A stretch of DNA of 64,000 nucleotides, taken from assembly GCA_964467655.1 (NCBI GenBank), contig CAYXSN010000002.1, forward strand, positions 27,327-91,326, read 5' to 3'. Positions 46,482 through 58,431 of the stretch are shown one piece after another. Position numbers and translations under genes: made by a program. A model generated the notes under the pieces. That model had not been told where the DNA came from and did no database searches. It saw only the letters and a program-made list of their open reading frames with translations. The stretch is from an uncultured Candidatus Saccharimonadales bacterium (lineage in GTDB: Bacteria; Patescibacteriota; Saccharimonadia; UBA4664). Each line of letters opens with the position of its first letter. Position 1 is the stretch's first letter.

Positions 46482-49400
46482 ATGAACAAATACGATCCTC
46501 ACGCCCTCGAGCCTAAATGGCAGCAAGTTTGGGCCGACACCAACCTGTACGCCGCCACCGATGACGACCACACCCGCCAAAAATACTACTACCTAGTGGA
46601 GTTTCCGTACCCCAGCGGCGACGGTCTGCATGTCGGCCACGTCCTTAGCTACACGGCGCTCGACATCATGGCCCGCCACAAGCGCATGCAAGGCTACAAC
46701 GTGCTCTACCCCATGGGCTTCGACGAATTTGGCTTGCCCACCGAAAACTATGCCATCAAACACAAAATTGCCCCCCAGGTTGCCACGCAAGCAAATGTGG
46801 CCAACTTCCGCCGCCAACTAAAGTCACTTGGCCTAAGCTTCGACTGGAACCGCGAAGTGCGCACTTCCGACCCCAACTATTACAAGTGGACGCAGTGGAT
46901 CTTCCTCAAGCTGCTCGAAAAAGGCCTAGCTTATCAGGCCGAGCTGCCCATCAACTGGTGCCCGTTCTGTAAAACTGGCCTGGCGAATGAAGAAGTGGTT
47001 GACGGCAAGCACGAGCGCTGTGGCACCCCAGTCGAAAAGAAGCTGCTCACCCAGTGGATGCTTAAAATTACCGCCTACGCCGACCGCCTGGCCGAAGACC
47101 TCAAAACCGTCGATTACCTCGACAGGATCGCTACCCAGCAGATCAACTGGATCGGGCGAAGCGAAGGGGCGGAGATTGACTTTACGCTAGCCGATCACGA
47201 TTACGACGTGGCCGACAGCCTGAAGTTCACGCCTGAGCTGACCAAACTAGTACAGGCTGGCACCAAGACTAACACCATCCGGCTTGAGCCCAAGAATCTC
47301 AAGGTTGGCGATTATACCCGCCTCATCACCCGCTATGATGCTGATCGCACACAAAGCTTTGCCATCGCCAAGATCACCAAGGTTGAAAAGCACGCGTTAT
47401 CTGATATTCCCGTTGATTTGGGTGGTCACGAGCCGTTCGCCAACAAGGCCGAGCAACTTGCCAGCTACCGCAAATACTACGGCGACGCCGTTACCGCCGA
47501 AACTGAATTCACCATTTATTACTTTGAAACTGTTGCCAATACCGTTACCGTCTACACCACCCGCCCCGATACCATCTTTGGCGCTACCTTCCTGGTGGTG
47601 TCGCCCGAAGTGGCCAAAACCTGGATCGACAGCGGTTGGAAAGCCCCCAAACCGGCCGCCGAGTACATCGATGCCGCTCTCAAGGCCAGCGAGCTGTCGC
47701 GCCAGGAAGAGTCAAAAGTCAAAACCGGTGTCGATACCGGCATCACAGCCATCCATCCACTGACCGGCAATCCAGTGCCCGTCTGGGTGGCCGATTACGT
47801 CCTAGGCTCCTATGGCACCGGCGCCATCATGGCCGTGCCCGCCCACGACGAACGCGATTACGAGTTTGCCAAGGCCTTTGATTTACCTGTCACATATGTA
47901 GTTGAGCCTCGTACGGGCACCGGCCCCGATGCGCCTGTACAGCGGCCCAGCATCGTTGCCGTACTACTTGATCAATCTGGTGAACGGGTAGTAAGTATGG
48001 ACCACCACGGACGCCATGATAATTGGGGCGGCCATTTACTCATTGGCGGTGGCATAGACCAGGGTGAACAGCCAATTGACACGGCCCGTCGCGAAATAAT
48101 CGAAGAAACCGGCTACACTGATTTTGAGCTGGTCGAACAAGCTCCATTTCAGATCCATCATCAGTATTTCTCGGCTGAGAAGAAGATCAATCGGCTGGCG
48201 GTTACAACCGGTTTTCTCTTCAAGCTTACCAGTGACCAAAGAGCTGAGCTAAAGCTGACAGACAGCGAAAAACGCAATAGCGTTGAACCGGTCTGGCTGC
48301 CCATTACCGATGCTTTAACGAGCGTAAAAGACGAAATGCATTCGTTGTGGCTACGCTTTTTCACACAAGGCACAAGCTTTGCTGCCAACGGCCCCCTCAT
48401 CAACTCCGGCGAGTTCAACGGCTTGTCTGGCACCGAGGCCAAGCGCGCCATCATCAAGGCATTGTTCGACAAAGGCGCTGGCCGCGGCGCCACCAAATAC
48501 CGCCTGCGCGACTGGATCTTTAGCCGCCAGCACTACTGGGGTGAGCCGATCCCGGTGGTGCATTGCCCCAAAGACGGCGTCGTACCCGTACCCGTCGACC
48601 AACTACCCATCGAGCTGCCCAAAGTCGACCACTACGAGCCGACAGACACCGGCGAGTCGCCGCTGGCCGCCATCACCGACTGGGTGAACACCACGTGCCC
48701 CAAGTGTGGTGGGCCCGCCAAGCGCGAAACCGACACCATGCCCAACTGGGCCGGTTCAAGTTGGTACTTCTTGCGCTACACCGACCCGCACAACGCCAAA
48801 GAGTTTGCGAGTGCCGAAAACCTCAAGTACTGGACCCCTGTCGACCTCTACAACGGCGGCATGGAGCACACCACGCTCCACTTGCTCTACAGCCGCTTCT
48901 GGCACAAATTCCTCTACGACGAAGGCCTCGTGCCCACATCAGAGCCCTACGCCCGGCGCCGCAGTCACGGCATGATACTCGGACCCGACGGCCAAAAGAT
49001 GAGCAAATCCAAGGGCAACGTGATTAATCCAGACAGCGTGGTAGCGCAGTACGGCGCCGACACCATCAGGCTCTACGAAATGTTTATGGGCCCGTTTGAT
49101 GAGGTCAAAGCCTGGAGCGAAGACCATCTCAATGGTGTATCGCGCTTCATGTACCGGGTCTGGACCTGGCTGGACGACCTCACCGACGACGCCGAAACTC
49201 TTGCCGGATCAGTCGGCTACGAAAACGACCTTGGCGCCTTTACCGTGGCCACCGACAGGATCGTCCACAAAACGCTCAAGAAAGTGCACCACGACATCGA
49301 AGACATGCATTTCAACACCGCCGTGTCGGCCATGATGGAGCTGGTCAATTATCTAACGAGCGCCGACGTCAAACGCAAACTCCGCCAGGCCAATGCCGCC

Positions 49401-49748
49401 GACCTCAGGGCGCGCACGGTCCGCACCCTCGTGCTCATGCTGGCGCCCTTCGTGCCGCATCTGGCCGAAGAAATCTGGCACGAGCGACTGGGCCAAGAGG
49501 GGAGTGTCCACCGAGCACCATGGCCCAAATATGATCCAGAACTCATCAAAGACAACATTGTTACGGTAATCGTGCAGATCAATGGTAAATTGCGCGGTGA
49601 GCTGGTGGTGGCAGCCGATGCCACCGAGGACGACGTCAAGCAAGCCGCCCAAACCGATCCCAATGTGGCGCAGCACCTCGAAGGCAAAACCATTAGCAAG
49701 ACCATTGTGGTGCCCCGTAAGATCGTCAACTTTGTGGTGAAGCCCTAG
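46482..49748 (+). CDS. leuS: leucine--tRNA ligase with inserted ASCH/PUA-like and NUDIX domains
   Basis: Class-I HIGH (PYPSGDGLHVGHV) and KMSKS motifs; CP1 editing domain (TRPDTIFGATF, AHDERDYEFA); anticodon-binding C-terminus. 1088 aa versus the usual roughly 800-860. TATAAT 13 nt upstream. Confidence 0.9.
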   Translation: MNKYDPHALEPKWQQVWADTNLYAATDDDHTRQKYYYLVEFPYPSGDGLHVGHVLSYTALDIMARHKRMQGYNVLYPMGFDEFGLPTENYAIKHKIAPQVATQANVANFRRQLKSLGLSFDWNREVRTSDPNYYKWTQWIFLKLLEKGLAYQAELPINWCPFCKTGLANEEVVDGKHERCGTPVEKKLLTQWMLKITAYADRLAEDLKTVDYLDRIATQQINWIGRSEGAEIDFTLADHDYDVADSLKFTPELTKLVQAGTKTNTIRLEPKNLKVGDYTRLITRYDADRTQSFAIAKITKVEKHALSDIPVDLGGHEPFANKAEQLASYRKYYGDAVTAETEFTIYYFETVANTVTVYTTRPDTIFGATFLVVSPEVAKTWIDSGWKAPKPAAEYIDAALKASELSRQEESKVKTGVDTGITAIHPLTGNPVPVWVADYVLGSYGTGAIMAVPAHDERDYEFAKAFDLPVTYVVEPRTGTGPDAPVQRPSIVAVLLDQSGERVVSMDHHGRHDNWGGHLLIGGGIDQGEQPIDTARREIIEETGYTDFELVEQAPFQIHHQYFSAEKKINRLAVTTGFLFKLTSDQRAELKLTDSEKRNSVEPVWLPITDALTSVKDEMHSLWLRFFTQGTSFAANGPLINSGEFNGLSGTEAKRAIIKALFDKGAGRGATKYRLRDWIFSRQHYWGEPIPVVHCPKDGVVPVPVDQLPIELPKVDHYEPTDTGESPLAAITDWVNTTCPKCGGPAKRETDTMPNWAGSSWYFLRYTDPHNAKEFASAENLKYWTPVDLYNGGMEHTTLHLLYSRFWHKFLYDEGLVPTSEPYARRRSHGMILGPDGQKMSKSKGNVINPDSVVAQYGADTIRLYEMFMGPFDEVKAWSEDHLNGVSRFMYRVWTWLDDLTDDAETLAGSVGYENDLGAFTVATDRIVHKTLKKVHHDIEDMHFNTAVSAMMELVNYLTSADVKRKLRQANAADLRARTVRTLVLMLAPFVPHLAEEIWHERLGQEGSVHRAPWPKYDPELIKDNIVTVIVQINGKLRGELVVAADATEDDVKQAAQTDPNVAQHLEGKTISKTIVVPRKIVNFVVKP

Positions 49749-49753
49749 CTAAC

Positions 49754-50353
49754 ATGACGCGCCACGAAACACCAGATCCCCGAGAAGTTGATGGATTCGA
49801 AGCCGCCCAAAAACAAGGCCTCCTGCCATTAGTTTCGGACACAGCACCCACGCTAGAAATCCAGCCTCCAGCCGGTGCCATGCTAGATACTCACATTATT
49901 TCATCAGTAATTGGTTTTTTTGCTTGCGTCGTCGGTATCTTACTGATTGATAAATTTCTAAAACCACCTGACATCGTTTTTATAGGTCAGGTGGTGATTA
50001 CAGGCTCATTGATGTTCTGGTATTGGCTATGGAAAACAGCCAAAATCGGCGAAGTGGCCGTCAGTGAATTCAGTCGAGGCTATACCACTATTCAGAGATT
50101 AGTATTCGGTAACTTTTGGCTTGGATCATCCCGGACATCATGGTGGAATGATGATCGGATAGGATGGGACTTTACCGGTTTGTGGCGACTTGATCCCAAG
50201 AGTGGAGCTGTAATAGCAGCACCCAACAGAACTGTAACACCTCCCGGATTCTATCCATCACCATTCAAATCGGGCAAGTTTCAGCAATGGACAGGCAGTG
50301 AGTGGATATCAGTGTACCGTGACGCCAATAAAAAAATGGGAGAGTCCTTCTAG
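49754..50353 (+). CDS. membrane protein with C-terminal DUF2510-like motif
   Basis: Two TM helices; C-terminal PPGFYPSPFKSGKFQQWTGSEW resembles the GWYPDP...RWWDG..WT motif. Confidence 0.35.
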   Translation: MTRHETPDPREVDGFEAAQKQGLLPLVSDTAPTLEIQPPAGAMLDTHIISSVIGFFACVVGILLIDKFLKPPDIVFIGQVVITGSLMFWYWLWKTAKIGEVAVSEFSRGYTTIQRLVFGNFWLGSSRTSWWNDDRIGWDFTGLWRLDPKSGAVIAAPNRTVTPPGFYPSPFKSGKFQQWTGSEWISVYRDANKKMGESF

Positions 50354-50400
50354 CCTGCCGGGCGATTGAACCACACAAAGTCACTCTCGATCTTACGGTA

Positions 50401-50949
50401 GTGATCGGCTATTATAGCGATACATGCGGCGAGAGTGTCAGCGTCAAACTTCACTTACGACAAGCGGCAGCATATTCATTTCGAGTAGCCGTGGCCGGAA
50501 TCCCTGGAGATAACTGGCTTAGCTTAGCCCTACTGGTGGGGCGCGCTGCCAACTGGTGCGACGACATGCGCATCGTCTTCGACCCGCAGATAGTGAGTGA
50601 AGTGCTGCGTGCGCGCGGTTTTCTGCCCCTTCAACCGGGCGAAACCATGCCAGAAGAAGGCTACCTCGAGAAGCTAGCCTATGTAATTCGTTTTGCAGCT
50701 CATGGCGGTGAATGCGGCTACCTGCATCCCGACACCGGCATGACCGTCGCATCCATCGCTCAAGATCACAGAGTACAGCCACTTGTCGGACGATTCTATC
50801 AGGATGGTGAACTCAATCCGGGGTCGAATGATGTAGTGCTGAACTTGTTATTTGTGCAAACTGCGCAGGTGGAAGACGCCCAGCGCAATGAGGAGTGCCA
50901 TTACGGCAGCTGCCCCAAAGAACACATACATAGCGTACTGAGCGATTAG
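50401..50949 (+). CDS. hypothetical protein
   Basis: 182 aa; its 3-prime 100 nt overlap the convergent ORF 50848..51402, so one of the two may be shorter or spurious. Confidence 0.3.
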   Translation: MIGYYSDTCGESVSVKLHLRQAAAYSFRVAVAGIPGDNWLSLALLVGRAANWCDDMRIVFDPQIVSEVLRARGFLPLQPGETMPEEGYLEKLAYVIRFAAHGGECGYLHPDTGMTVASIAQDHRVQPLVGRFYQDGELNPGSNDVVLNLLFVQTAQVEDAQRNEECHYGSCPKEHIHSVLSD

Positions 50950-51402
50950 GCCAAAGCGCGAAAAGGCATAGGCAGTAAGCAAGCTCGACCTGAGCATATC
51001 ACCCTGGAATAAGGTGGTTTTCTGGCCAGCCAGCTTCTGGTCGGTCGGGTTGGCCCGGGACAGCTCACTCACTTCGGAATAAGTTTTACCGTCGGCGATC
51101 TTCATCATGTGCACCCAAATGAATTCATCGGCATAGGCTTTGGCCTTATCGCCGTTATCCACTTGCTGGCCGGCATATTTTTGGAGGCCAGGGAACTCTT
51201 TGGGGTCAAGCGCAGCGCTCCCGGCTGGCGGGAAGAACACCTTTTCCTGGACAAGCTGACTCTTAATCTGGTCATCGGCAAACCGGTTAGCCCATTGCGC
51301 CAGAAAGCCACCACCGGTAAGGGCGACAAACACAATGACGCCGAGTCCTATTAATACCTTATCAAGCTGTTTACGACTGCTTTGCTTCACGTTGCGTTCC
51401 AA
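50848..51402 (-). CDS. hypothetical membrane protein (N- and C-terminal TM helices)
   Basis: 184 aa; TM helices at both ends. Confidence 0.4.
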   Translation of the reverse strand: MERNVKQSSRKQLDKVLIGLGVIVFVALTGGGFLAQWANRFADDQIKSQLVQEKVFFPPAGSAALDPKEFPGLQKYAGQQVDNGDKAKAYADEFIWVHMMKIADGKTYSEVSELSRANPTDQKLAGQKTTLFQGDMLRSSLLTAYAFSRFGLIAQYAMYVFFGAAAVMALLIALGVFHLRSLHK

Positions 51403-51456: not shown

Positions 51457-52140
51457 ATGCCTATTGGCCACGACGACCCCTTTATCGATTATTATCATGT
51501 ATTAGGTGTGCCTCCGGCAGCCTCAGGCGAGGAGGTCAAACAGGCTTATCGCCAAGCCGCCAAAAAAGCCCATCCAGATGCGGGCGGCAGCTCGGCAGCC
51601 ATGGATAGCCTCAACCAGGCCTATGCCGTACTGGGTGATCCAGCCAAGCGGGCGATATTTGATCAAGAGCGCCAGCTTCATGATGCCCCGCCGCCGGTCC
51701 AGCCATCTGCGTCTGCTGCCGCATCTTCGCCGGTCCAATCCGACGCTCAGCTCCACGCCGCCCGCCAGGAATTGCGTCGCCTCAGGGTGGCCTACGCCCG
51801 CCATTCAGGCCTGGAAATCATTCGGTGGTCGCTGGTAGCCGGCGCCGGCCTGGGAGCCCTGATGTGGCTGTTTGGCGGCTTGATTACCGGTGGTGTTGTC
51901 CGGGCAATACTCTTGGTGGGCTTGGGCGGCAGTGGCTTTGGCCTGGTCTTTGGCATCACCTGTCTGACGGATCCCGATCACCGTTTGGTATTGTTCGACC
52001 TGTCTTGGCGGCACCGTCAATTTCCGGACAGGCAGTGGTGGCTCATCACGGCAGCCCAGTTTGTGACAGGAGTTTTACTTGGCGCTGGTCTTGGCTGGTG
52101 GCTATTGTCTCAGGCTCCTTCCAGTCTTTTTGGAGCTTGA
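51457..52140 (+). CDS. DnaJ (J-domain) membrane protein
   Basis: J domain DYYHVLGV...AYRQAAKKAHPD with HPD tripeptide; Ala/Pro linker; C-terminal TM helices. Confidence 0.65.
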   Translation: MPIGHDDPFIDYYHVLGVPPAASGEEVKQAYRQAAKKAHPDAGGSSAAMDSLNQAYAVLGDPAKRAIFDQERQLHDAPPPVQPSASAAASSPVQSDAQLHAARQELRRLRVAYARHSGLEIIRWSLVAGAGLGALMWLFGGLITGGVVRAILLVGLGGSGFGLVFGITCLTDPDHRLVLFDLSWRHRQFPDRQWWLITAAQFVTGVLLGAGLGWWLLSQAPSSLFGA

Positions 52141-52192: not shown

Positions 52193-53332
52193 ATGCCTCA
52201 TTCCAAAGTCCTCGTCATCCTTCCTACCTATAACGAAGCCAGGAATGTCGAACCGCTCCTTGCCCAGATCTTTGCCATCGGCGATACCATGCCCGGTTGG
52301 CACTTTGATGTCCTGGTCATGGACGACACGTCACCTGACGGCACCGCCCGGATTGTCCGCCGATTAGCCGACAATCAATACCCGGGACGGCTGTTTCTTC
52401 AGTCTGGCCCAAAAGAGGGGCTGGGCCGGGCCTTGCAACGGGCGTTTGACGAAGCCCTCAAGCGCGACCACGATGTCGTGCTGACGATGGATGCCGACTT
52501 TTCTCATAGCCCCCAAGACATCCCGGCTCTCATGGCCGCCGTCGACAGCGGTGCCGATGTCGCCGTGGGCTCACGTTATGTTGAGGGTGGCCTCATCCCC
52601 GGTAACTGGCCGCTGCGCCTCATCATCCGCACCCGGTTGGCCACAGCCATGGCCCACTGGCTGGGCGGCGTCAGTCATGACCTGCATGAGCTCACAACCA
52701 ACTTTCGCGCCATCCGCCGGCCGGTCTTGGAGGCCATCCCGTACAACCAAATCCAGGCCAATGGTTATGGTATCCAGATCTTTCTAGCAAATGCCATCAC
52801 CGACGGGCCTTATAAGGTCGCCGAGGTCCCCATTACCTTCAGGAGCCGGGCTCATGGCAATTCCAAAGCCAAACTCGGTGATGTTATCGAATTCTTGCGT
52901 ATAGCCTATCAGCTCAATCCTGATTCGCCGGCCAAACAAGCCCTGAGGTTTGTGGCTGTGGGTACGAGTGGCACCATAGTGAACTTGCTGGCCCTGTGGC
53001 AGTTTCAGAAGCTCACAGGTAGTACGCTGCCGTATATCTCATTGATGGCCATCCAGGTCAGTGTTATCTGGAACTTTCTATTGCATAACTTATTTACGTT
53101 CCGTGAGCCGTCGGGCCGGCACCATCAATCAAACGTCATCATGAGGTTTTTTAAATACGAAGGAGCTGTTCTATTATCGCAAACGCTCATGCTTGGCATG
53201 TATAGTTTGCTCACCTGGTTTGGGCTACAATTTCTGGTCGCCCAGCTGATCGGCATTGTAACGGCCTTTGTCGTCAACTATCATCTGTCGATTACGTATA
53301 TTTGGAACAAACCAGGTGATCATGCTGAGTGA
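52193..53332 (+). CDS. polyprenol-phosphate sugar synthase (GT2, DPM1/GtrB-like) fused to GtrA-like flippase domain
   Basis: ILPTYNEARN, MDDTSPDGT and TMDADFSH (DxD) motifs of Dpm1/GtrB-type GT2. C-terminal about 120 aa with GtrA-family pattern (FVAVGTSGTIVNLLALW...NFLLHNLFTF). Confidence 0.75.
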   Translation: MPHSKVLVILPTYNEARNVEPLLAQIFAIGDTMPGWHFDVLVMDDTSPDGTARIVRRLADNQYPGRLFLQSGPKEGLGRALQRAFDEALKRDHDVVLTMDADFSHSPQDIPALMAAVDSGADVAVGSRYVEGGLIPGNWPLRLIIRTRLATAMAHWLGGVSHDLHELTTNFRAIRRPVLEAIPYNQIQANGYGIQIFLANAITDGPYKVAEVPITFRSRAHGNSKAKLGDVIEFLRIAYQLNPDSPAKQALRFVAVGTSGTIVNLLALWQFQKLTGSTLPYISLMAIQVSVIWNFLLHNLFTFREPSGRHHQSNVIMRFFKYEGAVLLSQTLMLGMYSLLTWFGLQFLVAQLIGIVTAFVVNYHLSITYIWNKPGDHAE

Positions 53333-54593
53333 CTTACAGACATGGCTGCTGACCGTCTTTGCTGCCATGCTGACGGTACATGGTTTTGTAAACTTATATT
53401 TAACGCTGTATGCTTGGGCGGATCCAGCCCGTATCGACCAGGCCCGTGCACCCAAGACCTTCAGGCCGCCGTTGTTTGGCTTTAGCCTGTTGCTGCCAAG
53501 TCGCCACGAGCACCAGGTGATTGGCGAAACGCTCCGCCGGTTGGCGACGATCAACTATCCCGTCCACAAATTCGAGCTCATCGTCCTGTGTACACCTGAC
53601 GATCAGGCGACGATCAACGCCGCCCGAGCCAGTATTGCGCGTTACCGCATTGGCAACGCCCGCGTGGTTGTCTTCGATCCTCCCAGCGGCAAAGCCCGGG
53701 CCATGAATATCGGCTTGGCAGCCGCTCGCCATGAACTGGTCACAATTTTTGATGCCGAAGACGATGTCAGCCCCGATATCCTCAATATTGCCAACACGCT
53801 GTATCATAATCAGGCTATTGATATCCTCCAGGGCGGAGTTCAGTTGATGAACTTTGACAGCCAGTGGTTTAGTGCTGCCAACGTGCTGGAATATTTCTTT
53901 TGGTTTAAGTCACGGATGCACTATTACGCCCGATCAGGCATCGTGCCCTTGGGAGGCAATACGGTATTTTTTAAAAAGCGCGATGTATTGCACGTTGGCG
54001 GTTGGGACGAGAAGTGTCTAACCGAAGATGCCGACATTGGCATCCGTCTGAGTCTGGCCGGTAAGCGGTTTGGCGTGATGTATGATGCCGCTCATGTCAC
54101 CAGAGAGGAAACGCCGGCCACCGTGGCTGCCTTCATCAAGCAACGGACTCGCTGGAACCAGGGATTTCTACAGATCACCGGCAAAGGCGACTGGCGACGG
54201 TTATCCAGGATCAAACAGATCAGTCTGGTACTGTATATCCTAGAGAGTCCTAGTTTTATGGCCTGGGTGCTCGCTTTGGCGCCGGTTACCTTGTTTCTTG
54301 GTTGGTACGTGCAAGCCAACATCCTGGTAAGCCTGTTGTCATTCATGCCATTAATCCTCAGCGTGCTCAATATAGTAGTGAGCCTGGTCGGCCTCTATGA
54401 ATTTGGTCAAGAGCAAGTGTGTCGCATCAGATGGCGCCATTACTTCAAATTCTTACTGGCCTACCTGCCGTATCAGTTGATGCTAGCTGCTGCCTCCTGG
54501 AGAGCCCTCTGGCGGCATTATCGAGGCCAGCATGCTTGGGAAAAAACTGCCCACTTCGGGGCGCATCGACCGGCCGGAGGGAGTTCGCTATGA
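53322..54593 (+). CDS. processive family-2 glycosyltransferase (cellulose/chitin-synthase-like)
   Basis: DAEDDV (DxD), TED, and Q(R)TRWNQG QxxRW motif; N- and C-terminal TM helices. Confidence 0.75.
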   Translation: MLSDLQTWLLTVFAAMLTVHGFVNLYLTLYAWADPARIDQARAPKTFRPPLFGFSLLLPSRHEHQVIGETLRRLATINYPVHKFELIVLCTPDDQATINAARASIARYRIGNARVVVFDPPSGKARAMNIGLAAARHELVTIFDAEDDVSPDILNIANTLYHNQAIDILQGGVQLMNFDSQWFSAANVLEYFFWFKSRMHYYARSGIVPLGGNTVFFKKRDVLHVGGWDEKCLTEDADIGIRLSLAGKRFGVMYDAAHVTREETPATVAAFIKQRTRWNQGFLQITGKGDWRRLSRIKQISLVLYILESPSFMAWVLALAPVTLFLGWYVQANILVSLLSFMPLILSVLNIVVSLVGLYEFGQEQVCRIRWRHYFKFLLAYLPYQLMLAAASWRALWRHYRGQHAWEKTAHFGAHRPAGGSSL

Positions 54594-57184
54594 AGCGGCT
54601 GGTAAGCCTACTCAAGCGCCCTGAGACCTGGCTGGTGGTAGGACTGTTGGTGGTAGCTGGCCTGATACAAGGCTGGAATCTATCAGGTTACCCCTACATC
54701 GAAAACGATGAAGCCACCTATGTCTCTCGAGGATGGCATTTTATCACCACCGGCCAGCTTGATGTTTATACGTACCGCTATGATCACGCCCCCTTGGGTT
54801 GGATGACAATCGGCGCCTGGCTCTGGCTGACAGGGGGGACCAACAATTGGTTTGGTTCACTCGTGATGAGCGGCCGGGTGTTTATGCTGGTCATCCATGT
54901 ATTGTCGTGCCTGCTTTTATACAGCGTAACGAAGCGGCTCACTCACGGCAGCCGGGCCGCGGCAGCCGGCGCCGTCATCATCTTCAGCCTGACGCCTCTG
55001 GGGATCTACTTCCAGAGACGGGTGCTGCTGGATAACCTGATGACATGTTGGGTGCTCCTGAGCCTGTGGTGGGCCACCCGACCGGCACACCAGCTCAAAC
55101 ATTATATCTGGAGCGCAGTCTGGCTGGGTATAGCGGTGCTCACCAAACTCAACGCCATCTTTTTTGTACCGGCTTTCTGGTTTCTCATCTGGAAGAAGGC
55201 CGACCCCGGTCACCGGCTGCACGCCTTGCTGTATTGGACATTTGTGGTCGGAGCCATTATTTTCAATTTCTTCCTCTATGCCACCCTCAAAGGCGAACTC
55301 TTGCCGGCACCTCACGACGCGGCCGGCAACCCCACTCACGTGAGCGTGGTGGAGACCTTCCAGCTACAATTGGGGCGCGGTGATTTTGCTTGGCCATGGC
55401 AGCCCCAAAGTAGTTTTTGGCAAAATATCCAGGGCTGGGGTCTCAAAGACCCGTTCTTGTTGTTGGCGGGAGCCTTAGGTTTGACTGGTTTGAGCGTACT
55501 GGCCATCTGGCGCCGCCGGCACTACCCGTATTTACTAACCCTGGTACTGGCCACCTGGCTCTATATAGCATTTCTGGCTCGTGGCAAAATCGTGATTGAC
55601 CTGTACATTGTGCCACTTGTGCCGTTGCTTGCGGCCACAGTAGCCGGTTTTTGGGCTGTGCTCGGTCAAACGCTCTGGCCCCGCCGCTGGCGCTTCTTCA
55701 GGTGGCTGCACTTGGCCGTCGGGCTGGCGTTGTGTCTTACCACTGTCTGGGGGATGGGCGCCAAACCGTACACCGTCAACGAAACGCATAACCAGCTGGC
55801 GGCGCTTGATTGGGTGAAAGCTCGGTTGCCCAAAAACTCGCAGATCGTCACCGACAATTACGCCTACCCGTACCTGGCACAGGAGCAAGGCTACCAAAAC
55901 GTCAATTATTTCTTTAATGCCGAATACGACCCTGAAGTCAGGCGCATCTATGGAGATGACTGGCGCAATCTCAATTACCTGGTGCTCAGTCACGAGATTG
56001 TCAGTCAGATCAAAGCCGGTACCACGCCGCGCCTCAAGCAGATTCTCGACCATAGCCGATTAATAGCCGATTTTAGTGATCGCACTACAAGCTTTGTCGA
56101 CCTCAAGAATTACATTTCCACAAATGGTGACTGGGTACAGGTCTATCAGATAAAAGACCGCAACGAGATAGTATTACAAGATGCGTGGACTTATTTCAAG
56201 CAACATTTCATCACAGGGTACGGCCAGGTGATCGATCCGAACAACCAGGGGCTGACCACTTCGACAGCCCAGACCCAAACCATGGCCAGAGCGGTGGCCG
56301 AAAATGATCAGAAGACCTTCGAGGGAGTGTGGCAATGGACGCAGGATCATTTGAGGCATCGCCAGAGTGACGTGCTGCTGTCATGGAAATGGACTGCCTC
56401 GGTGAGTGGTAGCTACAGTCTAGCTGACGCCAATAACGTCTGCGCAGCCGATCAACAAGCCGCCGCTGCCCTCTATGCCGCCAATGACAAATGGCCGGGC
56501 TTTGGCTATCATATCGCCGCCGCCCGTCAGACAGCTGATTGGTGGGCCAAATGCGTTTTTAAAGCCGGCGGCCGGTATTTTGTTGATTCTTCAGCCGACG
56601 GCAGCCGCAATCCGCATCTGGTGAATCCGGGATACTTCGACCCTGCCTTATATGCTTATCTGGCCACCAAACAACCTTCATACGAATGGTCCCAGCTGAT
56701 GAGCGACGGCTACCAAACTACCAGCAGTCTATTGGATAAGGGCCCTCTACCCGACTGGATACTTGTGAGTGCCAACGGTGAAGTTACTTCAGCCCGCAGT
56801 GTTATGGGAGCGACGGCCGATGCCTTTGGGTATGATAGTCTCGACCTGGTCTACCACTTAGCTCAAGAAAGCCTGGCGGCCGATGAGCTGAGGGCTGCCG
56901 CCGCCCGTCAGGTGCTCGACCGGCTGGCCGCGCCATTACGAGAATTCAGAACTCGGACCGACTCGCCGCCCGCCGATATCGCCTGGCTGATACACGCCCA
57001 GACAGCGCAGCCAGCAGACAAACAGCAGCTTCAAACCCTGTACGCCTACGAAATATTTGACCAGTACCATCAGGGAGAAGGGTTCTGGGGGGATGGGCGC
57101 AGCTATCAGGACCAACTGTGGTACTGGCAATGGCATGATTTGCAGAGACATCTGCCGGCGGCCTCTCGATTGGAGCTTAAGTGA
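54590..57184 (+). CDS. GT-C-fold glycosyltransferase (PMT/GT39- or ArnT-like) fused to C-terminal GH8-like (alpha/alpha)6 domain
   Basis: N-terminal about 470 aa polytopic with loop-1 ENDEATY (DE motif) as in PMT/ArnT. The C-terminal about 400 aa soluble domain resembles BcsZ-type GH8 proteins (assignment is inference). ATGA overlap with the upstream gene. Confidence 0.5.
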   Translation: MKRLVSLLKRPETWLVVGLLVVAGLIQGWNLSGYPYIENDEATYVSRGWHFITTGQLDVYTYRYDHAPLGWMTIGAWLWLTGGTNNWFGSLVMSGRVFMLVIHVLSCLLLYSVTKRLTHGSRAAAAGAVIIFSLTPLGIYFQRRVLLDNLMTCWVLLSLWWATRPAHQLKHYIWSAVWLGIAVLTKLNAIFFVPAFWFLIWKKADPGHRLHALLYWTFVVGAIIFNFFLYATLKGELLPAPHDAAGNPTHVSVVETFQLQLGRGDFAWPWQPQSSFWQNIQGWGLKDPFLLLAGALGLTGLSVLAIWRRRHYPYLLTLVLATWLYIAFLARGKIVIDLYIVPLVPLLAATVAGFWAVLGQTLWPRRWRFFRWLHLAVGLALCLTTVWGMGAKPYTVNETHNQLAALDWVKARLPKNSQIVTDNYAYPYLAQEQGYQNVNYFFNAEYDPEVRRIYGDDWRNLNYLVLSHEIVSQIKAGTTPRLKQILDHSRLIADFSDRTTSFVDLKNYISTNGDWVQVYQIKDRNEIVLQDAWTYFKQHFITGYGQVIDPNNQGLTTSTAQTQTMARAVAENDQKTFEGVWQWTQDHLRHRQSDVLLSWKWTASVSGSYSLADANNVCAADQQAAAALYAANDKWPGFGYHIAAARQTADWWAKCVFKAGGRYFVDSSADGSRNPHLVNPGYFDPALYAYLATKQPSYEWSQLMSDGYQTTSSLLDKGPLPDWILVSANGEVTSARSVMGATADAFGYDSLDLVYHLAQESLAADELRAAAARQVLDRLAAPLREFRTRTDSPPADIAWLIHAQTAQPADKQQLQTLYAYEIFDQYHQGEGFWGDGRSYQDQLWYWQWHDLQRHLPAASRLELK

Positions 57185-58341
57185 TTAAAAACTGTTGCTC
57201 GTTACGAACCTGGCTCTGGCTGGCAGCTCTCGGGGCTACTATTGCCCTCGGTGGCACGGTTCTGCTACTGAGTCAGCTCGAAGGCACTGACTGGCTGCCA
57301 CAGCCAGCCAGTCCCCGGGTCAGCAATGAGGTCGAAAGAATTGCCGTGAACCAGCTCGATGATTATCTACGCTGGTTAACCGAAAACCAGGCCTCGGGTT
57401 ACATCGGCGAAACCGGCTGGCCTGTTGGCACCGATCATTCCCGCTGGAACGCTGTGGCTGATGTCTGGTTTCAGGCAGCCAAACCACACGACATCTGGGT
57501 GACAGGCTGGGCGGCCGGCAGCCATTGGGGTGACTACCAATTATTACTCTATGGCTCCCGTAATGGCCATAGCCTCGACACTGCCAGTCCAGCCGCCGGC
57601 AGTCTGGAGGCTGCTCTGCGCCAGCCCCACCAGGGACGCTATGGCGTCAACCTAGCCGGCCTGGAGTTTGGTAATGCTACCAGCCAAAATCCTGGCCAGC
57701 CCGGTGTCGACTATTTTCCTGAACCGGCCGCCAGCTACAACTATCTGGCAAGTCGGGGCATTAAGCTAATCCGTTTGCCGGTGCGGTGGGAGCGACTCCA
57801 GCCTGAGCTAGGTGAGCCGCTCAAGGGTACTGAAGTGGCTGCCCTACGAACTCAACTTGACCAGGCCGCCGCCGCCGGTTTGTCTGTGGTGCTCGACTTG
57901 CACAACTATGGTCGCTACCGTACCGGCGCAAATGAATTAGTACTAGGCACCAGTCAACTGACTGCCGGCCATGTAAGCGATTTTTGGATCAGGCTGACGC
58001 AAGAATTGGGTAACCATCAGGCGGTTATCGCCATAGGACTCATGAATGAACCACATGATCTGCCGGCCGCCGAGGGCTCCACCAGCGCCCAAACCTGGGA
58101 AGATATCAGCCAGACAGTGGTCAACGAGGTACGCCGATCAGGATTTCATAAGACCATCACGGTGGCCGGCTACGATTGGTCAAGCCTGGCCCGCTGGCGC
58201 TCAAATCATCCTCGGGCCTGGATCCAAGATCCCGATGCCAATATCAGGTATGAAGCCCATCATTATTGGGATGCCGATGGCAGTGGCAAGTATATCCAGT
58301 CGTTCGACGGAGAACTATCGGCCTCCAGTCTGCGGCAATAA
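57181..58341 (+). CDS. glycoside hydrolase family 5 (cellulase-like), membrane anchored
   Basis: N-terminal TM; LIRLPVRWERLQP and catalytic NEP (IGLMNEPHD) motifs of GH5. Confidence 0.7.
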   Translation: MIKNCCSLRTWLWLAALGATIALGGTVLLLSQLEGTDWLPQPASPRVSNEVERIAVNQLDDYLRWLTENQASGYIGETGWPVGTDHSRWNAVADVWFQAAKPHDIWVTGWAAGSHWGDYQLLLYGSRNGHSLDTASPAAGSLEAALRQPHQGRYGVNLAGLEFGNATSQNPGQPGVDYFPEPAASYNYLASRGIKLIRLPVRWERLQPELGEPLKGTEVAALRTQLDQAAAAGLSVVLDLHNYGRYRTGANELVLGTSQLTAGHVSDFWIRLTQELGNHQAVIAIGLMNEPHDLPAAEGSTSAQTWEDISQTVVNEVRRSGFHKTITVAGYDWSSLARWRSNHPRAWIQDPDANIRYEAHHYWDADGSGKYIQSFDGELSASSLRQ

Positions 58342-58431
58342 AGACGTCGAGCCCGCCGTCTCGCCGCGCCCACTCGCGCTACAGGTTGCCAAAGAGTCAT
58401 CGGATCTGGTATAATCTGCTCCAAGAGTGCG

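Follow-up and report, generated by a model that had tools for sequence, protein, structure and literature searches.

Gene organization

Here, we describe a cluster of four genes, g1 to g4, from an uncultured Candidatus Saccharimonadales bacterium (GenBank assembly GCA_964467655.1, contig CAYXSN010000002.1, positions 27,327 to 91,326). The whole stretch of 64,000 nucleotides that was analysed is called the window, and all coordinates refer to it. Four open reading frames (ORFs) on the + strand fill positions 52193-58341 and encode, in order, a putative polyprenyl-phosphate hexose synthase, a membrane glycosyltransferase (GT) of the cellulose/hyaluronan-synthase type, a fusion of a GT-C glycosyltransferase to a glycoside hydrolase family 8 (GH8)-like domain that has lost catalytic residues, and a membrane-anchored GH5 enzyme whose barrel appears to be circularly permuted (Table 1). 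Together they may make, decorate and trim a cellulose-like polymer at the cell surface.

Adjacent genes overlap by 11 nt at g1/g2 (ATGCTGAGTGA), by ATGA at g2/g3 and by GTGA at g3/g4, in agreement with an earlier note on this DNA that had described four tightly overlapping genes. Because of these overlaps of 4-11 nt, and because the only strong promoter-like site near the cluster lies 3' of g4 (58386-58415), g1-g4 look like a single operon. The earlier note had given g3 as 921 amino acids (aa), which is the maximal ORF from GTG 54419; we instead call a protein of 864 aa from ATG 54590, since homologues of ~860-890 aa align from residue 1-2 and this start yields the ATGA overlap. Residues of g3 are counted here from ATG 54590, whereas the family alignment was translated from 54587 (numbering +1). 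The composition profile is free of any GC anomaly around g1-g4, two tRNA-Ala genes far from them were all that Rfam and tRNA scans of the window picked up, and no NCBIfam equivalog was matched by g1, g2, g3 or g4. Proteins g4 and g2 are 99-100% identical to P0121 and P0241, which are encoded on short JGI metagenome contigs.

Table 1. Genes, domains and active-site motifs of the four-gene cluster, in window coordinates
Feature	Position	Strand	Evidence
g1, putative polyprenyl-phosphate hexose synthase, archaeal dolichol-phosphate mannose synthase (DPMS) type	52193..53332	+	Pfam, phmmer to 5mlz, hydrophobic segments
GtrA/DPMS transmembrane domain of g1 (aa 252-371)	52946..53305	+	PF04138; aligns to transmembrane domain of 5mlz
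g2, minimal membrane GT2, cellulose/hyaluronan-synthase type	53322..54593	+	Pfam, BcsA match, AlphaFold2 model, Foldseek
g3, 864-aa fusion: GT-C (aa 1-391), alpha/beta domain (~392-523), GH8-like (alpha/alpha)6 domain (~524-864)	54590..57184	+	Pfam, AlphaFold2, Foldseek
ENDE motif of g3 (aa 38-41), start of first extracytoplasmic GT-C loop	54701..54712	+	D40, E41 invariant in 121 sequences
GH8-like domain of g3, placed outside the cytoplasm by topology and predicted not to hydrolyse	56159..57181	+	PF01270, 92.9 bits; profile match to BcsZ, CelA
TSTAQ of g3 (aa 557-561), replacing catalytic-acid TSEGQ	56258..56272	+	Alignment to solved GH8 enzymes
AADQQ of g3 (aa 619-623), replacing DADxD	56444..56458	+	Mapping on 1cem, clade profiles
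Base Asp of g3 (D749)	56834-56836	+	Mapping on 1cem
g4, membrane-anchored, apparently circularly permuted GH5 endoglucanase, both catalytic Glu present	57181..58341	+	PF00150, phmmer, hydropathy
g4 aa 53-123, barrel strands 7-8, nucleophile motif IGETG (GETG 57406-57417)	57337..57549	+	Aligns to 4ee9 221-289
g4 aa 154-373, barrel strands 1-6, acid/base NEP (58045-58053), DLHNY, AHHY	57640..58299	+	Aligns to 4ee9 5-212

The GT-C-GH8 fusion protein

Protein g3 matches PF13231 (PMT_2; 40.8 bits, cutoff 26.1) and PF01270 (GH8; 92.9 bits, cutoff 24). Its AlphaFold2 model (pLDDT 93.8, pTM 0.89) has eleven membrane helices, and hydropathy gives ~10 segments. By Foldseek the N-terminal part resembles ArnT (5f15; TM-score on the target, TMt, 0.57), AglB and Stt3. 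Invariant features in 59-121 sequences include ENDE (D40, E41), YDH, RRxLLDN and single K, E and R residues; since D40/E41, RRxLLDN and these K, E and R residues are kept throughout, the GT-C is likely to be active. A DxD-like acidic loop motif has a role in GT-C enzymes (PMC8035078). The PMT_2 match, the fold and the ENDE motif thus bear out the earlier reading of this part as a PMT/ArnT-like GT-C with a DE loop; no NCBIfam model covers it. Source annotations call the fusion 'glycosyl hydrolase family 8' or 'endoglucanase Y / ArnT-like'.

The C-terminal domain is of the BcsZ type by Pfam, sequence and fold, as the earlier note had proposed. A family profile matches BcsZ and CelA over the whole GH8 domain (E 1e-39 to 1e-42), and the Foldseek matches are cellulose-synthase-associated endoglucanases, namely P. 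putida 4q2b, E. coli BcsZ and CMCax (TMt 0.75-0.79). With eleven membrane helices in the model, the domain would lie on the same side of the membrane as the DE loop, which makes it extracytoplasmic by helix count, a point of topology that the earlier note had left to be checked.

Alignment to solved GH8 enzymes confirms that g3 reads TSTAQ in place of TSEGQ, as had been seen before, and AADQQ in place of DADxD. In CelA (1cem) we take E95 and D278 to be the catalytic acid and base, and D152 is functionally important. Mapped on the window protein, E95 falls on T559, D152 on A619, D156 on Q623 and R281 on D752, all four being lost, whereas D154 (D621) and the base D278 are kept, the latter as D749, which lies in GYDS and aligns with the D of YKYDATR in 1cem.

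The loss extends well beyond the window. Among 121 family members, TSEGQ is kept in 55 and the Glu is absent from 66, and in the Saccharimonadia/Actinobacteria clade the Glu and several other active-site residues are lost throughout. In the Glu-less group, variation is seen at nine further GH8 positions whose conservation in the Glu group is at least 91% (Y563, D613, D619, D623, D695, Y746, R756, F782 and F847). Conserved in both groups are the cleft aromatics W583, W635, W652, W700, Y708 and W723 and several Asp/Arg residues, including D621 and the base D749. In pairwise comparison the GH8 domain has a mean identity of 0.48 in the Glu group and 0.38 in the Glu-less group, compared with 0.50 and 0.47 for the GT-C. 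Because the acid and Asp residues are lost while the cleft aromatics, D621, D749 and 38% identity persist, the picture is that of a domain whose catalysis has gone but which is still maintained.

An engineered counterpart exists in 3qxq, by its entry title a cellopentaose complex of BcsZ, which we take to carry the substrate-trapping mutation E55Q. In both proteins the proton-donor Glu is lost and the fold and cleft aromatics are kept. In g3, unlike in the mutant, the loss is natural and clade-wide, two more Asp are gone, and the domain is fused to a transferase.

A circularly permuted GH5

Protein g4 has a single N-terminal hydrophobic segment (aa 12-30) as membrane anchor and matches PF00150 (GH5) above gathering score with 98.4 bits, but only over profile positions 25-204 of 272. 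With phmmer it matches solved GH5 endo-beta-1,4-glucanases (4ee9 and relatives) at E 7e-41 in two separate stretches. Since the N-terminal stretch aligns to 4ee9 221-289 and the following one to 5-212, g4 appears to be a natural circular permutant in which barrel strands 7-8 precede strands 1-6, with GETG at aa 76-79 and NEP at aa 289-291. The other residues typical of the family, R, H, H-x-Y and W, are also present. The earlier note had correctly named a membrane-anchored GH5 with NEP; the permutation had not been noticed there.

Of the 120 best g4 homologues, 118 have the permuted order and all have NEP. The homologue clusters reaching E 1e-5 number at least 691; they come from Actinomycetota and Saccharibacteria and bear no annotation beyond 'GH5/cellulase'. 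A literature search found no description of a permuted GH5.

Relatives and synteny

More than 325 homologue clusters share the architecture of the fusion, which is present in 124 species-representative genomes, mostly of Patescibacteria (Saccharimonadia, Woese-, Shapiro-, Roizman-, Levy-, Pacebacteria and others); outside these it occurs in Demequina, Microcella, Marisediminicola and one Chloroflexi metagenome-assembled genome (MAG). The GT-C module alone yields 416 representative clusters at E 1e-30 or better, and the top 150 representatives comprise 79 of at least 780 aa (fused) and 56 of 480-700 aa. The fusion, called unusual in the earlier note, is so relative to characterised proteins and is common in Patescibacteria. 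A literature search found no description of a GT-C-GH8 fusion or of this cluster; the Actinoplanes gsf cluster, taken from the literature as a candidate counterpart, was rejected, being without GT-C and GH8.

Patescibacteria-type fusions are also present in many MAG records titled 'uncultured Gammaproteobacteria', 'Pseudomonadales' and 'Bdellovibrionales' (L021-L023, L025, L027, L033, L034, L053, L054, L066, L070 and others). Some of these are contigs or chromosomes of 1.0-1.6 Mb, and the labels look doubtful.

Gene order is well conserved. Immediately upstream of the fusion, on the same strand, 66 of the 69 loci with enough flank have a g2-like GT2, and 36 of 60 have a g1-like gene directly upstream of this GT2 (17 with a GtrA-like part, 19 with the catalytic domain only). 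In some Patescibacteria the two are joined: in protein P0338 (702 aa), from the contig that is the source of locus L019, a g1-like catalytic domain without the GtrA part is the N-terminal fusion partner of a g2-like synthase. Several further homologues, 702-726 aa long, probably share this architecture.

The closest relatives are locus L004 (73% identity), which is syntenic with the window from leucyl-tRNA synthetase (LeuRS) to SMC, and L006 in CP064960.1, a complete MAG genome of 1.32 Mb (77%). Loci L004 and L002 and the actinobacterial loci carry a six-gene form: g1, g2, g3, a small GtrA gene (126-160 aa), a flavoenzyme gene and GH5. The flavoenzyme (NCBIfam NF005560, 407 bits) is HpnE/CrtI/protoporphyrinogen-oxidase-like and also adjoins the fusion system in distant Patescibacteria; our guess is that it modifies the polyprenol carrier. 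The window is without this segment (L004 12592-14283), homology ending at the g3 stop and resuming in the GH5 N-terminus (window 57181-57230), and neither gene is present elsewhere in the 64-kb window, which is a reduced four-gene form and one member of a sizeable family.

In a neighbour-joining tree, the actinobacterial fusions (L001, L007-L010, L012, L071 and L083, from Microcella, Demequina, Marisediminicola and a Microbacteriaceae MAG) form one clade. This clade is nested inside Saccharimonadia, which would fit a horizontal exchange of the genes between Saccharibacteria and the phylum of their hosts.

Presence of a GH5 follows the state of the GH8 motif. With only loci with adequate flanks counted, a GH5 lies within 10 kb at 19 of 24 loci with a degenerate motif vs 1 of 23 with the canonical S-E-[GA]-Q. 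The same tree has at least three separate Glu-less clades that bear a GH5. In the two minor ones the GH5s apparently have the canonical strand order, which argues that they were recruited independently. In the Saccharimonadia/Actinobacteria clade the GH5 is nearly always in the cluster, and this, with the clade-wide loss and the want of a canonical Glu, strengthens the earlier suggestion that the GH8-like segment may be a non-catalytic module.

The strong match of g4 to secreted endo-beta-1,4-glucanases (E 7e-41) would also suit a catabolic cluster, in which GH5 and GH8 degrade environmental or host cellulose or beta-glucan for food and the transferases are unrelated neighbours. We rejected this explanation as very improbable: the GH8 is without its catalytic acid, both hydrolase modules are membrane-tethered, their genes overlap those of the transferases, the GT2-fusion order recurs at 66 of 69 loci, and sugar transporters and downstream glycosidases are not in the cluster.

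The synthase-type GT2 and the polyprenyl-phosphate sugar synthase

Protein g2 scores above gathering with PF13641 (127.5 bits) and PF13632 (86.4 bits) and carries DAEDD (aa 144-148), TED (234-236) and QRTRW (274-278). Its best solved sequence match is BcsA (E 2e-6), over the TED and QxxRW region. These results uphold the earlier assignment to a membrane GT2 with DxD, TED and QxxRW motifs, as in cellulose, chitin and hyaluronan synthases. WEKT (aa 406-409) is invariant among g2 homologues, and WEKT..H stands after the last helix; presumably it corresponds to the gating-loop motifs of BcsA, chitin synthases and hyaluronan synthase (HAS), which it resembles. QxxRW with a gating-loop-like motif is typical of synthases that translocate their own product. 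The AlphaFold2 model (pLDDT 92.4) has one N-terminal and three long C-terminal helices, and the Foldseek matches are BcsA (4p00; TM-score on the query, TMq, 0.72), HAS (0.67) and PcManGT (TMt 0.75), a 'minimal cellulose-synthase-like' archaeal mannosyltransferase that has the highest TM-score on the target and reportedly acts on lipid-linked acceptors. No PilZ domain was matched in g2 by Pfam, the protein ending at aa 423, right past the last membrane helix.

The top target TM-score of PcManGT, the presence of only about four membrane helices and a match to PF13506 (Glyco_transf_21) could indicate that g2 is a glycolipid or short-oligosaccharide transferase (PcManGT-, NodC- or ceramide-glucosyltransferase-like), so that the cluster would build a membrane glycolipid or lipoglycan anchor which the GT-C extends outside. 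We regard this as decidedly improbable, since BcsA and HAS are the best sequence and query-normalised structural matches of g2 and without a polymer the two endoglucanase-type modules would make little sense; source annotation of g2-like proteins, which is automated naming only, reads 'cellulose synthase/PNAG synthase-like'.

Protein g1 matches PF00535 (GT2; 83.7 bits) and PF04138 (GtrA_DPMS_TM; 62.8 bits, cutoff 26.1), both above gathering score, and has a DAD motif at aa 100-102 and four C-terminal hydrophobic segments. By phmmer, aa 4-371 align with residues 23-372 of P. furiosus DPMS (5mlz) at E 7e-53, end to end, through the catalytic domain with its DAD and the four-helix membrane domain; unlike that enzyme, g1 is bacterial and shares its operon with genes for a synthase and a GT-C. 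Matches to ArnC (E 1e-9 to 1e-10) and to AglJ are far weaker and weaker, respectively, and g1 falls far below every cutoff of the NCBIfam equivalogs. The GtrB-GtrA fusion of the earlier note is thereby confirmed, though this domain layout is not new, being that of archaeal DPMS. By homology g1 would make a polyprenyl-phosphate sugar, and its GtrA-like domain is a predicted flippase.

That g1 is closest to a dolichol-phosphate mannose synthase raises a further explanation, in which two functions share an operon, g1 and the GT-C carrying out O-mannosylation, of the Ppm1/Pmt kind, of secreted or surface proteins while g2, the GH8-like domain and GH5 handle a glucan separately. Actinobacteria use Ppm1/Pmt, the DE loop motif is PMT-like, and many g3 homologues match PF02366 (PMT); the window g3 itself stays below PF02366 and has no sequence match to solved PMTs. 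In most family members the GT-C is covalently joined to a glucan-binding fold (79 of the top 150 representatives have at least 780 aa), and it is nearly always translationally coupled to the synthase-type GT2, which argues for a glycan as acceptor; we consider O-mannosylation quite unlikely.

Neighboring genes

A DnaJ-domain membrane gene directly upstream (51457-52140) was rejected as a member of the cluster; it adjoins g1 in the closest relative alone, and in Microcella and L002 it does not. Between LeuRS and this gene, positions 49754-51402 hold three ORFs (199, 182 and 184 aa, the last on the - strand) without a Pfam match. In the syntenic relative L004, the DnaJ gene directly follows LeuRS, without these three intervening ORFs. 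The window LeuRS (46482-49748, +; 1088 aa) has extra ASCH (aa 247-349, E 4e-7) and NUDIX (aa 488-612, E 2e-13) domains that flank the CP1 editing domain; for the L004 LeuRS (982 aa), NUDIX is listed and ASCH is not.

Proposed function

We propose that the cluster makes, sugar-decorates and trims a cellulose-like surface polymer, a reading that we hold to be an even bet. The polymer, the donor sugar and the acceptor are what we infer. As a minimal BcsA/HAS-type synthase, g2 would polymerise and extrude a beta-linked glycan, most likely beta-1,4-glucan-like because the hydrolase modules belong to the BcsZ-type GH8 and endo-beta-1,4-glucanase-type GH5 lineages. On the cytoplasmic face, g1 would make a polyprenyl-phosphate-hexose (mannose or glucose), and its GtrA-like domain would help to move the lipid-linked hexose to the outer face. 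There the GT-C of g3, which by its fold and the adjacent DPMS-like gene is expected to use a polyprenyl-phosphate-linked donor, would transfer the hexose onto the polymer emerging outside the membrane; synteny and the fused GH8 fold point to the g2 product as its acceptor. The GH8 domain, catalytically disabled in this lineage, would serve as a glucan-binding module that holds the acceptor, and g4, the membrane-tethered permuted GH5, may have taken over BcsZ/CcsZ-like chain cutting and release. The GtrA/GtrB/GT-C logic of the earlier note gains support from the full-length match of g1 to DPMS and the conserved g1-g2-g3 order.

Parts of this scheme have precedents. PMT_2-type GT-Cs (GacL, CsdD, GtsC and others) decorate wall polysaccharides in Gram-positive multi-component systems, and large GT-Cs such as AftD have extracellular carbohydrate-binding domains for the acceptor (PMC8035078). 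For the BcsZ/CcsZ-like task proposed for g4 (PMC8892547), the precedent is in clostridial cellulose operons, where a membrane-tethered GH5, CcsZ, replaces the GH8 BcsZ (PMC7710045).

Compared with the Bcs and Ccs operons (BcsA-BcsB-BcsZ; CcsA-CcsB-CcsZ), the cluster is alike in having g2 with its D, DxD, TED and QxxRW residues and BcsA as best solved match, a BcsZ-type GH8 module in g3 and, as in the clostridial Ccs operon, a membrane-tethered GH5. It differs in that g2 is half the size of BcsA and without PilZ, the GH8 is fused to a GT-C and catalytically degenerate, g4 is circularly permuted and closest to fungal and bacterial endoglucanases (4ee9, 3qr3) and not to CcsZ, and a lipid-phosphate-sugar module is added. 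With neither PilZ nor BcsB, it is not a canonical Bcs operon, a candidate that we rejected.

Multi-component glycosylation systems (GtrA/GtrB/GtrV; CsbB/GtcA/YfhO; GacI/GacL; CsdCD) share with it a predicted polyprenyl-phosphate-sugar GT-A, a GtrA-type domain and a PMT_2 GT-C with an acidic loop motif, and AftD resembles what is proposed for g3, a large GT-C with an extracellular carbohydrate-binding domain. The cluster is nevertheless no plain Gtr system: synthase and GtrA domain are here joined in a single protein, as in archaeal DPMS, the partner of the GT-C is a synthase-type GT2 and not a teichoic-acid or Wzx/Wzy pathway, and the proposed acceptor-binding module is a decayed glycoside hydrolase.

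Several points weigh against the decorated-polymer scheme. No BcsB/CcsB homologue is encoded in or beside the cluster or in related loci, and the PilZ domain is missing. Processivity and self-sufficient export of g2 stay at the level of prediction because it has only about four membrane helices and its structure resembles that of the non-processive archaeal PcManGT (TMt 0.75) no less than that of BcsA. No solved GT-C in the PDB matches g3 at E up to 1, with a single sequence or with the family profile, so that here too we infer donor and acceptor, and the suggestion of a beta-1,4-glucan product draws on the lineage of the GH8 and GH5 modules only. At 24 of 60 loci the place directly upstream of the GT2 is not taken by a g1-like gene. 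Many Glu-less relatives have an Asp or, in one clade, a Glu at position 560, just after the lost acid (TTSxDQA, TTAGEQG), which may be a shifted catalytic acid, an altered activity being kept in some of them; this residue is absent from the window (TSTAQ) and its nearest relatives (TSYSQ). The association of the GH8 motif with GH5 (Fisher p 1e-7) ignores phylogeny, and a literature search found no biochemical or genetic work on any family member.

The main rival is a lipid-linked route, in which g1 would load a hexose onto polyprenyl phosphate as a primer, g2 would lengthen this to a lipid-linked beta-glucan oligomer or polymer, the GtrA-type domains would flip the product and the GT-C, in the manner of an oligosaccharyltransferase or ligase, would transfer the chain en bloc to wall, lipid, protein or a growing glucan, with the GH8 holding the chain. 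It would be a modern form of the old lipid-intermediate model for Agrobacterium cellulose; lipid-linked primers for cellulose, including this Agrobacterium proposal, have been discussed (PMC8892547). The conserved g1-g2-g3 order fits this route, as do the joining of a g1-like domain to a g2-like synthase in P0338, the small size and PcManGT-like fold of g2, and the flavoenzyme of relatives, which could modify the polyprenol carrier. Entries for AglB, the archaeal oligosaccharyltransferase, are the lowest-E Foldseek matches of the GT-C, but the root-mean-square deviation is 14-17 Å and the TM-score 0.36, and ArnT fits better by target TM-score. Against the route, a neighboring g1 is missing at many loci, and g2 has QxxRW and the gating-loop-like WEKT, if we take these motifs to mean what they do in the synthases. 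Moreover, the GT-C falls in PMT_2, whose characterised members move single sugars from monophosphate carriers (PMC8035078). On balance we think the lipid-linked route unlikely.

Beyond the window, we tentatively suggest, as an idea with some way to go before it is probable, that the GT2 and GT-C-GH8 pair is an undescribed glycan assembly machine widespread in Patescibacteria. An inner-face synthase and an outer-face, lipid-sugar-dependent GT-C would work together on one nascent chain, and the result would be a cellulose-like polymer with branches or else a lipid-primed glucan that the GT-C passes on. The GH8 would have turned repeatedly into a non-catalytic chain holder after a separate GH5 was recruited, a circular permutant in the clade of the window, and the machine would have been exchanged between Saccharibacteria and Actinobacteria hosts, hinting at a role at the epibiont-host surface.

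Significance

The cluster brings to light a large family of GH5 enzymes with circular permutation, which standard annotation calls simply 'cellulase', and it would provide a clean case from nature of one glycoside hydrolase decaying to a binding module while another takes over. If the proposal is true, this would be the first extracytoplasmic lipid-carrier-dependent glycosylation coupled to a synthase-dependent polysaccharide. Because cultured Actinobacteria (Demequina, Microcella, Marisediminicola) carry the same cluster, the model is open to direct genetic test. Patescibacteria, or the Candidate Phyla Radiation (CPR), have tiny genomes and poorly understood envelopes; the cluster is among the few multi-enzyme envelope systems conserved over many of their classes, and its products may mediate host attachment.

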